Source of the DNA: a virus
Virus record (IMG/VR): IMGVR_UViG_3300036774_000031
Coordinates: 1 to 43,113 of that record
DNA length: 43,113 nucleotides
Strand: one strand, 5' to 3'
Under the pieces are notes generated by a model. It ran no database searches. It was given only the letters and a program-made list of their open reading frames with translations, and was not told the DNA's origin. The position numbers were made by a program, and so were the translations under genes. Shown piece by piece: positions 1,774 to 6,614 of the stretch (within the stretch, counting starts at the first letter, position 1; each line of letters begins with the position of its first letter).

Positions 1774-3600
1774 ATGAGCAAGCGCGACCGTCATCGTAAC
1801 AAGTTTGGCGCCCCGATGCAACGCGAGCAAGTTGAGATAACTAAGCAAGTCACGAACGAGGCCGCGGCCGCGATGCAGAACGGCCTGGCAGATGCGCTTG
1901 GCGGCGGGATTGGCCTTGGCGGCGGATTTAACCCTATCGGATTTCCCGGCAATCAGAACTCGCCATTCGCCGAAACCATAAGCGATTCTGATACCTTATT
2001 CAAGAATATGCGCTGGTATCTGGTATCCAACTTCCGCCAGCTATTGTCCGAGGCGTATGTCGAGATCGGCCTAGTCCAAACGATTGTTGATGTCCCTGTC
2101 GACGACGGCCTGCGCGGCGGGATCGAGATCAAGTCGAAGCAACTCAGCGAGGAACAGATCGAAGAGCTTCGGCTATCGATTGATCGCGACGACGACCTGA
2201 CTATCGTTGGACAGGCAGCGAAATGGAACCGTTTGTTTGGCGGCGCCGGCATCCTGATCCTGACCGATCAAGACCCAGAGGAACCGTTAGAGGTCGAAAA
2301 GATCACGGCCGACAGCCAGCTTGAATTCCGCGCCGTCGATATGTGGGAACTATTCTGGGACAAGCAAAACACCGAAGGCTATGACCCGGCAATCCAGACG
2401 CAGGACTTCGAGTTTTACAACTACTACGGCGAACAGGTCCATAAGTCGCGCGTCATGCGCCTTAAGGGATTGTCCGCGCCATCATTCATCCGCCCGCGCC
2501 TTCGTGGCTGGGGATTCAGCGTTGTCGAGACGCTCATCCGGTCGATTAACCAATACTTGAAGGCGACTGATCTGACGTTCGAGGTGCTCGACGAGTTCAA
2601 GGTCGACGTCTACAAGATCAAAAACCTTGTCAACACACTCCTGTCCCCCAATGGCGCGCAACAGATCCAGAAGCGCATCCAGCTTGCCAACTTCCAGAAG
2701 AACTATCAAAACGCGCTGACCATGGACAGCGAGGACGACTGGGATCACAAACAGCTGTCCTTCGCTGGCATGGCCGAAGTCATGACCCAGATCCGTATGC
2801 AGGTCGCCAGCGACATGCGGATGCCGATGCTCAAACTGTTCGGCACGCCAGCGCAAGGACTTAATGCGGGCGACGAGGATAGCATCGAGGTCTATAACTC
2901 GATGGTCGAATCCCAGGTCCGCAACAAACTCAAATACGACATCCTGCGTGTCTGCGAGATCAAGTGCCAACGCCTATTTGGGATGATCCCTGACGATCTA
3001 TCCGTGCATTTCAAACCTCTGCGAGTCATGTCGGCCGAACAAGAAGAAAACGTAAAGACCCAGAAGTTCTCGCGTCTGATTCAAGCCAAACAGGCGGGCG
3101 AGATCACGCTAGAAGAATTCCGCGATAGCTGCAACAAAGGCAACCTATTTGACATCACGCTCGATACGACTGACGGCGCATTGCTGGACGTCAAAGACGA
3201 GGCGGCAGAAGGATTCAACGATCCGCTGCAAACGAAGGATGTCGACGATCCTGGGGCCAACCGTCTCGATACGCGCAAGGCACGCGCGACAGAAGTCGGC
3301 GGTGCCGGCAAGGAACCTAAGCCAGCACCGCGGTCAGCGTCAGCACCTAAGGCGAAAGCCGAAGCTGGATCTAGGCGCGAACAAGTCCGCAATTCGCCCG
3401 AATTCGACCGCGCCAGCTATGCGGCTGACGGGGGTGATGAATGGATCGATGACCGCCGACGCGAGTTCTTCGAGAATCCTGGCAAGGTCGACGAGGGACT
3501 GTGGGCTAAAGCGAAGGAGGCATCAAAGGCAGCGTTTGGTGAGATCAAATGGAAGTTCGTAACTTGGTGGTACAAAAAACAAGGCGGACATTTCGGTTAA
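1774..3600 (+). CDS. Portal protein (DUF1073-like) with a charged K/A/E-rich C-terminal extension
   Basis: 608 aa, directly after terL and upstream of the Mu F-like and scaffold genes. The DUF1073/DUF2213/DUF2184-type head-gene trio is recognised from memory. Confidence 0.75.
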   Translation: MSKRDRHRNKFGAPMQREQVEITKQVTNEAAAAMQNGLADALGGGIGLGGGFNPIGFPGNQNSPFAETISDSDTLFKNMRWYLVSNFRQLLSEAYVEIGLVQTIVDVPVDDGLRGGIEIKSKQLSEEQIEELRLSIDRDDDLTIVGQAAKWNRLFGGAGILILTDQDPEEPLEVEKITADSQLEFRAVDMWELFWDKQNTEGYDPAIQTQDFEFYNYYGEQVHKSRVMRLKGLSAPSFIRPRLRGWGFSVVETLIRSINQYLKATDLTFEVLDEFKVDVYKIKNLVNTLLSPNGAQQIQKRIQLANFQKNYQNALTMDSEDDWDHKQLSFAGMAEVMTQIRMQVASDMRMPMLKLFGTPAQGLNAGDEDSIEVYNSMVESQVRNKLKYDILRVCEIKCQRLFGMIPDDLSVHFKPLRVMSAEQEENVKTQKFSRLIQAKQAGEITLEEFRDSCNKGNLFDITLDTTDGALLDVKDEAAEGFNDPLQTKDVDDPGANRLDTRKARATEVGGAGKEPKPAPRSASAPKAKAEAGSRREQVRNSPEFDRASYAADGGDEWIDDRRREFFENPGKVDEGLWAKAKEASKAAFGEIKWKFVTWWYKKQGGHFG

Positions 3601-3624
3601 TCCCCACAATACAGGAGATCAAGC

Positions 3625-4050
3625 ATGACAGAGGGAATGATTCAGTGGTCGCCCGGGGTGACCCTAGATGCCATCGAGAAACAGGTAATTCTTAAGGCGT
3701 ATGCCTTCTATCGCCAAAACAAAACGGCGACAGCGGCGGCGCTTGGCATCTCCGTGCGCACTATCGATAATAAGTTCGAGCGATATGAAAAAGATGATCG
3801 AGAACTCGAGGGAAAAGAAAATGAACGAGCGCGCCAACGAGAAGACGACATGCTCCGCGCCAGAGGCCAGCATCCCAACCAAATTGCAGCAGCAGCCGCA
3901 CAAACTAGCAATAAAGCCACTGCCGGGGTTCACGCACAATCCGCTCCTAAAACTGCCGCGCAACCGCAAGTGTCCGTGCCTCAGCGGCAAGAAGTTCAAG
4001 GCGTGCCATCTGCCGTTACTGCCAAGGGTGGTTTCACAGGACGACGCTGA
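3625..4050 (+). CDS. Fis/NtrC-type HTH DNA-binding protein (N-terminal ~60 aa convincing, tail low-complexity)
   Basis: LDAIEKQVILKAYAFYRQNKTATAAALGISVRTIDNKFERY matches the HTH_8 (Fis-type) pattern. After ~3800 the frame becomes A/Q/P-rich and overlaps a better-looking ORF in the +1 frame. Confidence 0.6.
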   Translation: MTEGMIQWSPGVTLDAIEKQVILKAYAFYRQNKTATAAALGISVRTIDNKFERYEKDDRELEGKENERARQREDDMLRARGQHPNQIAAAAAQTSNKATAGVHAQSAPKTAAQPQVSVPQRQEVQGVPSAVTAKGGFTGRR

Positions 4051-4180
4051 AAAGTTCTCCAAACAGATGCGCCAAGATGATTTGGTGTTCATCACGAAGG
4101 AGAACGAAGCATTGATCAAGGATGCCAATGCGCGATTATCAGGAGATACCGCCAGTCAGGGAGTCGAGTCGAAGTTATGA
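3785..4180 (+). CDS. SEC-C motif protein, overlapping ORF in the +1 frame (start uncertain: ATG 3785, 3794 or 3821)
   Basis: NRKCPCLSGKKFKACH (3971-4009) matches the SEC-C metal-binding motif CPCxSGKKxKxC[CH]. The flanking sequence (PLPGFTHNPLL..., VVSQDDAEKFSKQMRQDDLVFITKENEALIKDANARL) looks protein-like. Confidence 0.5.
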   Translation: MKKMIENSREKKMNERANEKTTCSAPEASIPTKLQQQPHKLAIKPLPGFTHNPLLKLPRNRKCPCLSGKKFKACHLPLLPRVVSQDDAEKFSKQMRQDDLVFITKENEALIKDANARLSGDTASQGVESKL

Positions 4181-5135
4181 ACGCATCGAATTGCGAATCA
4201 AAAAAGTTTTCCTAGATCTGATCTATCTGCCCCTCGTCCGCGAGCTCAACGCCCCAATCAAAAAACTAAAGAATGCGAAAAGCGCATTGCTTGAAGCCAT
4301 CCAAGCCGGCCGGGTCAGTGTCCGCCAAGGGTATTGGACCGGCAAGTTCACGGCTGCGATATCGAAAGAATTGCGGGAGCTCGGCGCGACATGGGACAAA
4401 GAAATGTCCGCCTTTAGACTGCCAATGTCCATGCTGACGCCAGCAATGCGCGAGGCCGTACGTCTAAGCGAATCGCGACTCACCGATAAATTCAGACGCA
4501 TCGACGAGTATCTCGTAAAACTCCAACCAGAAATAATTGCGCAGTCAGTAAAAGTTGCCGACCTGTTTGATACCGCACTCTTGAAAGTTGACAAGGACAT
4601 AGCGCATACTTTACGTAAGATAACGATCCCCGCACAGTTGACACCTGAACAGAGAAGAAAGATTGCTGCCGAATGGCAAGACAATATGGAGCTCTGGATC
4701 AAAGATTGGTCGGCTAAGGAGATCGTTAATCTGCGCAAGGACGTGCAGAAACATATTTTCGCAGGGAACCGCTACGAACACATGATCAAGACGATCAAGA
4801 CATCATATGGCGTCAGCGAGAACAAGGCCAAATTCCTTGCTCGCCAGGAAACCAATTTGCTGATGTCGAAGTTCAAAGAAACGAGATATGCCGCCGCGGG
4901 CGTCAAAGAATATCGTTGGCAAACAGTCGTGGGCTCACCAAATCACCCCGTTAGACCTGCACACAAATCCCTCAATGGCAAGATATTTGCCTTCGATAAT
5001 CCTCCAGTGACCACAGCGCCAGACGAACCCGCGCGTCGGAACAATCCGGGCGAGGACTATAATTGTAGATGTACGGCGATCCCCCTGATCAGATTCAAGG
5101 GGCATAAAAGAGGTTCAAATGACGATATCCGGTAA
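4122..5135 (+). CDS. Head morphogenesis protein, Mu F / SPP1 gp7 family
   Basis: Position after the portal. The C-terminal HPVRPAHKSLNGKIF...NPGEDYNCRCTAIPL is the characteristic Mu F-like motif. Confidence 0.8.
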   Translation: MPMRDYQEIPPVRESSRSYERIELRIKKVFLDLIYLPLVRELNAPIKKLKNAKSALLEAIQAGRVSVRQGYWTGKFTAAISKELRELGATWDKEMSAFRLPMSMLTPAMREAVRLSESRLTDKFRRIDEYLVKLQPEIIAQSVKVADLFDTALLKVDKDIAHTLRKITIPAQLTPEQRRKIAAEWQDNMELWIKDWSAKEIVNLRKDVQKHIFAGNRYEHMIKTIKTSYGVSENKAKFLARQETNLLMSKFKETRYAAAGVKEYRWQTVVGSPNHPVRPAHKSLNGKIFAFDNPPVTTAPDEPARRNNPGEDYNCRCTAIPLIRFKGHKRGSNDDIR

Positions 5136-5430
5136 TGTCAGCGTCGTTTCATATTCGGCGACGAATGTCCCGACCAACGCATATGTGTCGATTGGCGCGA
5201 TGCCGACATCCTGCCGCGCACTTCAAATCATCGATACCAGTGGCAAGATCATCAAGATCGCGACCGGAGCGCCGGGAAGTGAGGTCGATGTCGCGACCGT
5301 CGTGCCATCAACCAACCAAACCAATTTCGGTATTGTCATCCCGATTTACATACCGGCAGGACAGCCGATATCGCTTAAGGCGGTCGATGCCACGGCAAAC
5401 AGCGGTTATAACTTGTTGAGCTTCCTTTGA
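5119..5430 (+). CDS. Hypothetical beta-rich head-module protein (103 aa)
   Basis: AAGAGG SD upstream of ATG 5119. Coupled to neighbours by overlaps. No family recognised. Confidence 0.55.
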   Translation: MTISGNVSVVSYSATNVPTNAYVSIGAMPTSCRALQIIDTSGKIIKIATGAPGSEVDVATVVPSTNQTNFGIVIPIYIPAGQPISLKAVDATANSGYNLLSFL

Positions 5431-6614
5431 TCCAAAACCAAAAAGGTCGGATCTATTACGGACTTCATTTTTACTCTGGAGTGGCAGAGTATGAAGAAGC
5501 CGGTAAAGCGCCGTATCGCGTGTTTCTGAACGAGAACACGCTGCGCCAAATGGATCCATCCTTTGCGGGTCGGCCGGTATTCGTCCTGCACGTTGATGAC
5601 GTCGAACAGAACATCGATGTCCTGCGCGCCGAGGCCGATGGCTGGGTTGTCGAATCGTTCTATAACGAGGCTGATGGCAAGCATTGGGTCAAGTTCATCG
5701 CCGTCAGCGAGAAGGCTGAACGCGCCATCAAGCAAGGCATGCGCCTATCCAATTCGTATTTCCCCAAGCAGCTTGGCCAGGGCGGCGTCTGGAACGGCGT
5801 TTCCTATGACAAGGAGATCACGGCCGGCGAATACGAGCATCTGGCACTGGTGCCAAACCCGCGTTACGACGAATCCGTCGTCATGACGCCCGAACAATTC
5901 AAAGACTACAACGAGAATCATCGACTAGAGCTCAAGAAGCTCGCGAACAATAACGACAAACGAAAGGAAACTACAATGGGGTTCAAGCTATTTGAGCGCA
6001 AGAAAGTCGAGAATGCGATTGACATCGAAAAGATGTCCGTCGTGTTGCCGAAATCTGGCGTCGAAGTGACGCTCGCCAAACTCATCAATGATGCCGACGA
6101 AGCCGAAGGCAAGGACGTCATGGCCAAGGGTGAGCATCACACCATGGTCGGCGACAAGAAGATGAGCGTCGGCAGTCTCGTCAAGAAATACAACAAGGTT
6201 TGCAGCGACCTCGAAGAACTGAAGTCGAAGCACGCCAATGATGATGATGCCAAGAAAAATGATGACGATGATGACGATGAAGAAAAGAAAAAGAAGAACG
6301 ACGAGGCGGAGCTAGAAACCGAAGTCGAGACGAAAAAGAAAAAGGTCGAAGTCGAAGGCGATAAGCATAACGACGACGATGATGACGATGAGGAAAAGAA
6401 AAAGAAGAACAAAGAAGATGAAGAGGCCAAGACGAAGGCCTTAGAACTTGCCGAGCACGAAGAGAAGGAAATCGCTGAGGCGAAAAAGAAGAATGCCAAG
6501 GAAAAGGCGGATCGTCTACGCAATGCTCAAAACAATGCGCTTAAGACGGCACCTCGTGTCGAACTATCTGAGGACCGGCTGGCGCGTGGTAAATCGCGTT
6601 ACGGATCTAACTAA
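5427..6614 (+). CDS. Scaffolding protein (DUF2213-like N-domain plus hyper-charged D/E/K C-terminal half)
   Basis: N-terminal ~160 aa (GRPVFVLHVDD..., EYEHLALVPNPRY) resembles DUF2213. The C-terminal half is coiled-coil-like with a duplicated DDDDDDEEKKKKN block. Sits upstream of the capsid gene. Confidence 0.65.
   Translation: MIQNQKGRIYYGLHFYSGVAEYEEAGKAPYRVFLNENTLRQMDPSFAGRPVFVLHVDDVEQNIDVLRAEADGWVVESFYNEADGKHWVKFIAVSEKAERAIKQGMRLSNSYFPKQLGQGGVWNGVSYDKEITAGEYEHLALVPNPRYDESVVMTPEQFKDYNENHRLELKKLANNNDKRKETTMGFKLFERKKVENAIDIEKMSVVLPKSGVEVTLAKLINDADEAEGKDVMAKGEHHTMVGDKKMSVGSLVKKYNKVCSDLEELKSKHANDDDAKKNDDDDDDEEKKKKNDEAELETEVETKKKKVEVEGDKHNDDDDDDEEKKKKNKEDEEAKTKALELAEHEEKEIAEAKKKNAKEKADRLRNAQNNALKTAPRVELSEDRLARGKSRYGSN

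Follow-up and report, generated by a model that had tools for sequence, protein, structure and literature searches.

Which genes lie between the portal gene and the Mu F-like (MuF) head morphogenesis gene of the virus recorded in IMG/VR as IMGVR_UViG_3300036774_000031? The window analysed here is the whole 43,113-nt stretch of that record, taken as one strand, and the question arises from its positions 3625 to 4180. An earlier description made from the letters and their open reading frames (ORFs), called below the sequence-only reading, placed three mutually overlapping frames there: a helix-turn-helix (HTH) gene, a hidden +1-frame ORF with a SEC-C metal-binding motif, and the beginning of the MuF gene. 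It offered three explanations for the hidden ORF, namely a genuine overlapping gene, a recoding event that yields an HTH-SEC-C fusion, and an assembly indel. From comparison with related loci we consider it probable that the stretch holds two separately initiated, out-of-phase genes on the + strand, overlapping by 230–266 nt in the late head-module operon of a phage related to Bdellovibrio phage phi1422.

Reading frames and protein families

A run of + strand genes in the window comprises the large terminase gene (422–1762), the portal gene (1774–3600) and then an ORF of 141 amino acids (aa) in frame 1 (3625–4050). A Shine-Dalgarno sequence for this ORF, AGGAG at 3612–3616, was read 8 nt 5' of its ATG and past the portal stop at 3600. 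The +1 frame over the same DNA (frame 2) has no stop over 3689–4180 and contains ATGs at 3701, 3785, 3794 and 3821; read from 3785 it gives an ORF of 131 aa (3785–4180; database protein P0001), with 3794 and 3821 as alternative starts. The MuF-like ORF (4122–5135) occupies the third frame (frame 0). The HTH ORF (to 4050) and MuF (from 4122) do not touch; the SEC-C ORF overlaps each of them in turn, which makes two pairwise overlaps in a chain and not the three mutually overlapping frames described before.

The frame-1 product passed the gathering threshold of Pfam HTH_8 (PF02954; 24.0 bits, cut-off 22, E = 3.3e-5) over aa 14–54, encoded by 3664–3786, in agreement with the Fis/NtrC-type HTH of the sequence-only reading. 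A profile of the HTH family matched the DNA-binding domains of ZraR, NtrC and Fis in the PDB at E = 1.4e-6 to 1e-4, and the protein probably binds DNA. In the Pfam search the HTH, at the N-terminus of the 141 aa, was the only match, and an AAA+ sigma-54 interaction domain (PF00158) N-terminal to it was not found. The frame had been thought to degenerate after about 60 aa, a view that needs revision: a charged helix running up to an L-x-R-x-R-G motif (3787–3870, to about aa 82) is kept in HTH homologues, including those without a SEC-C gene. The remainder of the protein (3871–4050), which lies in the −1 phase relative to the SEC-C core, is a low-complexity, A/Q/P-rich tail with a basic end. This tail includes QEVQGVPSAVTAK and, judging from composition only, is likely to be disordered; the tail pattern ..H.VPV.ER.EVQ.VLP......RR is common to about 45 full-length database HTH proteins of 135–179 aa.

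The frame-2 product passed the gathering threshold of Pfam SEC-C (PF02810; 29.6 bits, cut-off 20.4, E = 6.3e-7). The motif was confirmed at 3971–4009 as CPCLSGKKFKACH, a zinc knuckle of the form C-P-C-x8-C-H with a K encoded just before it at 3968, and the ORF was likewise confirmed to end at 4180, 59 nt inside MuF when counted from 4122. A single-sequence protein search with the SEC-C ORF returned only the ORF itself, and an alignment query was needed to recover the family; a profile search gave about 27 close members and an exhaustive search 544 clusters at E ≤ 1e-10. Across 27 sequences the zinc-ligand pattern is C-x-C-x8-C-(C/H), with C63, C65 and C74 invariant and C or H at position 75, and this pattern suggests that the protein binds zinc. 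The family core reads PGFxWNPLxKLPRNxxCPCxSGKKFKAC(C/H)...LPxxV...A..Y..QM..P.LxF.T.EN and follows a variable, S/T/E/K-rich N-terminus.

Members of the SEC-C family (P0002–P0028 and the 544 clusters) are nearly all small proteins of about 60–240 aa, and PF02810 was the only Pfam domain found in true members. SecA motor domains and the YchJ NTF2-like domain (PF17775) were absent from these true members, PF17775 appearing only in weak generic matches. An AlphaFold2 model of the window protein predicts a folded domain for aa 40–120 (3902–4145), with a predicted local distance difference test score (pLDDT) of 86–97, and has a pLDDT of about 60 for residues 1–38. The family profile matched the SecA C-terminal zinc domain in the PDB (1ozb, E = 3e-8); a structure search with the model matched only the SecA zinc knuckle and phi1422 gp22, and the sole PDB match from Foldseek was again 1ozb. 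Some members carry a C-terminal extension bearing a second Cys cluster, C-x2-C ... H-D-C-P-G (L199 2568–3143, L200 2586–3329, P0258 and P0233), which may form a second metal site.

Conservation of the two-frame arrangement

A MuF query of IMG/VR gave 20 loci, a SEC-C query gave two more with the same context, and the context of database proteins added L030, L032, L033, L194, L195, L196, L199, L200 and L201. Searches of these relatives by tblastn with both window ORFs, followed by reading of the ORFs, revealed conservation in both frames. In all 15 independent contigs where both are readable, the SEC-C frame lies at +1 relative to the HTH frame, and MuF identity among these 15 loci is 38–62%. 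The sequence-only reading had named a conserved HTH tail together with an unconserved SEC-C frame as the pattern that would speak for a single HTH gene; the homologues instead keep both frames. A blastn comparison of the region 3000–5200 with phage records gave no match.

This conservation bears directly on the possibility that one gene was split, or its frame moved, in this contig by an indel made during sequencing or assembly. A single window alone could not have ruled against such an indel, and a chimeric database protein, P0249 (see below), shows that indels of this kind occur in this gene. Contigs assembled independently from different samples nevertheless show the same two-frame layout 15 times over, and in about 45 database HTH proteins the tail is what the DNA of the SEC-C core encodes when read in the other frame; with these observations an indel in the window becomes hardly credible.

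The two genes also occur apart. The HTH gene stands alone between portal and MuF in L004, L007, L009 and L010–14, and neither gene is present in L015 and L016. SEC-C genes without an upstream HTH gene were found next to terS, the small terminase gene, in L197, and as gp22 in phi1422. Metagenome and genome scans with the SEC-C alignment, whose pattern is that of a generic zinc knuckle, returned SecA/YchJ-type loci, and none of L034–L193 had an HTH, portal or MuF context.

Automatic annotation has recorded one gene or the other. For the window, the protein database holds the SEC-C ORF (3785–4180, P0001) and lacks the HTH ORF, the opposite of the earlier expectation that a standard gene caller would keep 3625–4050 and miss the SEC-C ORF. 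Among the relatives, the annotation of L030, L032, L033, L194 and L195 has SEC-C and an empty stretch of about 150 nt in place of HTH, and that of L199, L200 and L201 has HTH and a gap in place of SEC-C; in none of the loci examined were both kept. Over 3785–4050, the content of guanine plus cytosine (GC) at the three codon positions is 0.52/0.40/0.75 in the SEC-C frame, like other genes of the window, and 0.75/0.52/0.40 in the HTH frame, unlike them, which is probably why the database has P0001 and not the HTH ORF.

Selection on both frames in the shared DNA

The dual-coded stretch spans 266 nt (3785–4050), or 230 nt if the SEC-C start is 3821. As judged from the aligned loci, both frames are conserved and under purifying selection within it. 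The HTH ORF traverses the zinc-knuckle codons without a stop in 14 of the 15 loci, the exception being L008, and its stop lies exactly 77 nt past the first Cys codon in 12 of the 15. To estimate how often such openness would arise, the SEC-C protein was held fixed in each locus and synonymous codons were resampled from that locus's own usage over 42 core codons. The probability of an open HTH frame was 0.013–0.31 per locus; the frame was open in 11 of 12 loci, and the product over these 11 is about 5e-13. A check found the null to be approximately calibrated: stops in the same relative frame of portal, MuF and terminase genes numbered 1008 observed against 1160 expected. With empirical open-window rates from the control genes (0.02–0.32 per locus), the product is about 2e-10.

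Individual codons of the SEC-C core point in the same direction. The HTH stop TGA (4048–4050) is made by an Ala codon GCT and the GA of the next codon (4046–4050), and GCT is used at this site in 13 of 14 loci against a usage of 0.04–0.30 (Poisson-binomial P = 3.6e-9). The motif's Phe codon (3995–3997) is TTC in all 14 loci that have Phe there, with a TTC usage of only 0.31–0.91; TTT would make TAA in the HTH frame. Other fixed wobble bases in the core are those of Asn (AAC in 12 of 12 loci) and Lys (AAG in 21 of 23 codons). Synonymous constraint was expressed as the fraction of identical codons at identical amino acids, observed over the expectation from independent draws. In portal plus MuF the ratio is 1.08, which places synonymous sites there near saturation. 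It rises to 1.42 for SEC-C codons that the HTH ORF overlaps and falls to 0.94 over the 13 codons that follow the HTH stop. The sequence-only reading had proposed analysing codon-position GC and synonymous constraint in both frames; the former fits the SEC-C frame, and the latter is raised only in the overlap. Similarity of the HTH frame among loci is 1.57 BLOSUM62 units per site, against 1.03 ± 0.07 in a resampling null conditioned on openness (z = 7.6).

The most serious rival to two functional genes holds that function in the core belongs to the SEC-C frame alone, and that the HTH tail is tolerated read-through, kept open by composition and chance. It accords with the codon-position GC over 3785–4050, with the low complexity of the tail, with the L008 HTH ORF, which ends ahead of the zinc knuckle, and with HTH homologues lacking a SEC-C gene, which can be only 72–111 aa long. 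It does not account for an openness of the HTH frame far above expectation, for a stop site fixed through a rare Ala codon, for constraint that rises only within the overlap, or for a similarity that exceeds the null even when openness is given. On balance we regard a non-functional tail as unlikely.

The two frames divide the overlap between them. Over about 3785–3870 the HTH frame is the conserved one, with the charged helix and LxRxRG, and the SEC-C frame encodes an N-terminus of low model confidence; over about 3900–4050 the SEC-C frame encodes the predicted folded core and the HTH frame the low-complexity tail. A minus-strand ORF of 154 aa (3664–4128) was considered as a third coding layer and rejected: the matching phase is open in only 8 of the 15 loci, and the ORF is therefore best taken as a compositional by-product.

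Proposed translation of the SEC-C gene

Most loci share the position of one ATG, which falls within TAT-GAx at the K/R-Y-E end of the HTH domain and is preceded by a GGAG formed by the Leu-Glu-Lys codons. In the window, the ATG at 3785 occupies this conserved site, where the Tyr-Glu codons read TAT-GAA, and has a weak GAGCG upstream. The ATG at 3821 lies 8 nt 3' of GAGGG (3808–3812), the best Shine-Dalgarno-like motif read within the HTH gene. Because no ATG beyond 3821 precedes the conserved SEC-C core, the overlap is at least 230 nt whichever start is used. Between the conserved ATG and the core, none of 12 loci has a stop in the +1 frame, an outcome with a combined probability of about 1e-4 when the HTH protein sequence is taken as given. 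A sigma-70-like element, TTGGCA-17-GATAAT at 3743–3771, lies upstream of the SEC-C ATGs; as an internal promoter it is not above chance expectation, and relatives lack it at the corresponding position. The RNA near the SEC-C start shows no unusual structure (z = 0.23).

These observations are consistent with a pathway in which gene 1 (3625–4050) would yield the 141-aa protein with its N-terminal Fis/NtrC-type HTH, charged helix to RxRG and low-complexity tail. Gene 2 (3785, 3794 or 3821 to 4180) would start from an ATG lying inside the HTH gene where the domain ends. Its product of 119–131 aa would have a disordered N-terminus followed by a folded domain around the PGFxxNPLxKLPRNxxCPCxSGKKFKAC(H/C) zinc knuckle, and would arise by internal initiation on the same polycistronic mRNA without a frameshift. 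Ribosomes translating the HTH gene would pass over the SEC-C start, so that the outputs of the two genes are presumably linked.

A programmed +1 (or −2) frameshift, or transcriptional slippage, would instead produce an HTH-SEC-C fusion and leave no SEC-C start that matters. The +1 phase, invariant in 15 loci, and the long doubly open stretch, in which a shift anywhere within about 100–230 nt would give a fusion, are what such a mechanism would leave, and the 194-aa P0249 is an in-frame chimera of HTH (1–38) and SEC-C. The shift-competent region, on the other hand, contains no conserved XXXYYYZ heptamer or homopolymer of at least 7 nt, three loci have no run of even 5 or more, and nothing in the zero frame of that region, such as a stop, would make ribosomes pause. 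Nor would a frameshift require what is seen in the HTH frame, namely continued openness well beyond the shift and a stop at a fixed site.

The proteins themselves argue against fusion. SEC-C homologues are small and stand-alone with their own ATG, some with no HTH gene nearby, so that the comparison of homologues proposed in the sequence-only reading finds HTH and SEC-C as separate small proteins. P0249 is the sole protein with both HTH_8 and SEC-C in a Pfam scan of the ten longest among the 150 best hits, and one case among the 544 clusters. Its frame switches inside the HTH recognition region, which would wreck the domain, and is most simply explained as a 1-nt error in that contig. A recoded fusion is accordingly very improbable as the explanation of this locus.

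A related idea retains the conserved frames and sees in the overlap a regulatory device beyond compaction, as either of two versions, an HTH-SEC-C fusion made when some of the ribosomes shift by +1 or a fixed ratio or timing of the two proteins; we think this distinctly unlikely. If the fusion version were true, the HTH would be tethered to a zinc knuckle docking on the portal/MuF assembly, as an adaptor for packaging or genome anchoring. In the other version, HTH translation through the SEC-C start to the conserved stop would set a fixed protein ratio or timing in head assembly.

Several points weigh against two separately initiated genes or soften the case for them. The combined P values are too small, because loci that share ancestry were treated as independent, although the near saturation of synonymous sites in the control genes tempers this; the robust part of the selection evidence is its direction and the sharp boundary at the HTH stop. 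The L008 HTH ORF stops ahead of the zinc knuckle, and this loss, together with the homologues of 72–111 aa that lack SEC-C, means that the HTH tail may matter less than the statistics suggest. L033 keeps GCT even though no stop results there. The start in the window is ambiguous, 3785 having the conserved site and 3821 the better ribosome-binding motif; the genuine overlapping gene of the sequence-only reading is supported, with all three of its ATGs as candidate starts. Finally, low-level frameshifting alongside separate initiation may be compatible with the sequence.

With two separate genes as the preferred account, the overlap would go back to two older genes that grew into one another. 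Neither looks born de novo, since the domains of both proteins are old and each protein also occurs on its own.

The MuF gene and neighbouring genes

The gene that follows was identified as MuF by Pfam Phage_Mu_F (PF04233; E = 5.9e-18), PHROG 324 (E = 4e-39) and its position after the portal gene. Its N-terminus, IPPVRESSRSYERIE, matches relatives from residues 8–9 on, so that the start is 4122 or, more likely, 4128; a Shine-Dalgarno sequence, AAGGA at 4118–4122, has a spacing of 5 nt to ATG 4128 and none to ATG 4122. The SEC-C stop (4178–4180) therefore lies 59 nt into MuF from the first ATG and 53 nt from the second. The shared segment (4122–4180) encodes the non-conserved C-terminal tail of the SEC-C protein and the N-terminus of MuF, and its extent varies, from relatives whose two genes lie apart or abut to others in which they have 14–60 nt in common. 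By this comparison the 53–59-nt SEC-C/MuF overlap is an ordinary, non-conserved gene-end overlap. The MuF N-terminus of L004, 'EYNPLKILELPP', was considered as a relic of the SEC-C sequence NPLLKLPRN and rejected, as it aligns with the ordinary MuF N-terminus of other loci.

The interval from the SEC-C gene to MuF is a hot spot that holds one to four extra genes in some relatives (L002/L005 1071–2760, L018 2985–3992, L003 747–1472, L194 2157–3783 and L199 3092–3397). These include a CxxCxxCC (PF03692-like) protein, an ORF of about 120 aa with LTxxDxxGNPVxL-like repeats, and enzyme-sized ORFs. In L032, a 68-aa gene right after the portal gene (2644–2850) has a match to Pfam PF24729 (Acb2_Tad1_hairpin) in a precomputed table and may encode an anti-defence sponge in the portal-MuF slot. 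As this slot holds variable accessory genes in relatives, a position there does not imply a structural role; late regulation, packaging and head assembly are candidate roles for the HTH and SEC-C proteins.

Downstream of MuF, the window encodes a DUF2213-like protein, a cement protein and the major capsid protein. An ORF of 103 aa (5119–5430) begins 17 nt before the MuF stop, and a 94-aa ORF (5135–5419) occupies another frame of the same DNA; neither has a Pfam match. The DUF2213-like protein (5427–6614) contains a duplicated, highly acidic, lysine-rich block, KKNDDDDDDEEKKKKN..., at about 6140–6520, and a long S/F-rich ORF (6137–6523) runs antisense to its gene.

Significance

Long out-of-phase overlaps with evidence of selection in both frames are rare in tailed phages, and automatic annotation routinely drops them. 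In all relatives examined the caller reported HTH or SEC-C and left the place of the other empty, so that the records of this phage group miss roughly half of each family. The locus is of interest chiefly to annotators and to those who study overlapping genes. Methods for detecting dual coding could be tested on the 15 DNA loci, the roughly 45 HTH proteins and the hundreds of SEC-C clusters, which together form a clean natural test set, and the pair would exemplify an overlap formed by mutual extension of two domain-bearing genes as against de novo overprinting. It also corrects a 'sigma-54-dependent regulator' annotation in phages of the phi1422 type to an HTH alone.

Comparison with known systems

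Frameshift pairs are known from phage structural modules, where the tail chaperone G/GT is made by a programmed shift and +1 shifts occur in Listeria phage PSA. The window resembles these in having two frames with a fixed phase relation in a morphogenesis operon. It differs from them in having a putative independent start conserved at most loci, no slippery site or stimulatory element, and no conserved fusions.

Among zinc knuckles, the closest are those of the SecA C-terminal zinc domain and YchJ/YecA (1ozb, 1sx0, 9l6b), which share C-P-C-x-S-G-K-K-[FY]-K-x-C-[CH] with the SEC-C protein at E = 3e-8 to 3e-7. In contrast to SecA and YchJ, the window protein contains no SecA or YchJ domains. Its knuckle is set in a predicted fold specific to the family, with PGFxWNPLxKLPRN upstream and a helical region downstream, for which there was no structural match.

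The closest cultured phage is Bdellovibrio phage phi1422, with a portal protein 58% identical to that of the window. Its gp46 (L198 3472–3801) has the same HTH domain, 56% identical over aa 6–55, in the same slot, between portal gp45 and head-morphogenesis gp47. Unlike the window protein, gp46 is 109 aa long, lacks the tail motif and shares none of its DNA with a +1-frame SEC-C gene. In phi1422 the SEC-C homologue is gp22 (63 aa; L001 4956–5147), a separate gene of the replication module, between helicase and primase and unlinked to gp46. The sequence-only reading considered an embedded DNA-binding regulator unusual for a head module; an HTH gene in this place is conserved across the phage group, and gp46 was annotated as a 'putative sigma-54-dependent transcriptional regulator' in 2012 (PMC3391216). 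That name is overstated, because gp46 has only the HTH and lacks the AAA+ domain.

Out-of-phase overlapping genes are familiar from other phages, such as phiX174 A/B/K and D/E, lambda Rz/Rz1 and MS2 L, and long overlaps are uncommon in tailed-phage genomes. As in the phiX174, lambda and MS2 cases, the window has two same-strand frames on one DNA, one partner being disordered or of low complexity where the other is structured; synonymous sites are constrained, and gene finders miss one partner. Overlapping genes in general have been reviewed elsewhere (PMC8227390, PMC6195259). Unlike those phage examples, neither partner in the window looks overprinted de novo, since HTH_8 and SEC-C are old and widespread domains and each occurs alone elsewhere; the pair looks instead like the mutual extension of two neighbours in a tailed-phage genome of about 43 kb.

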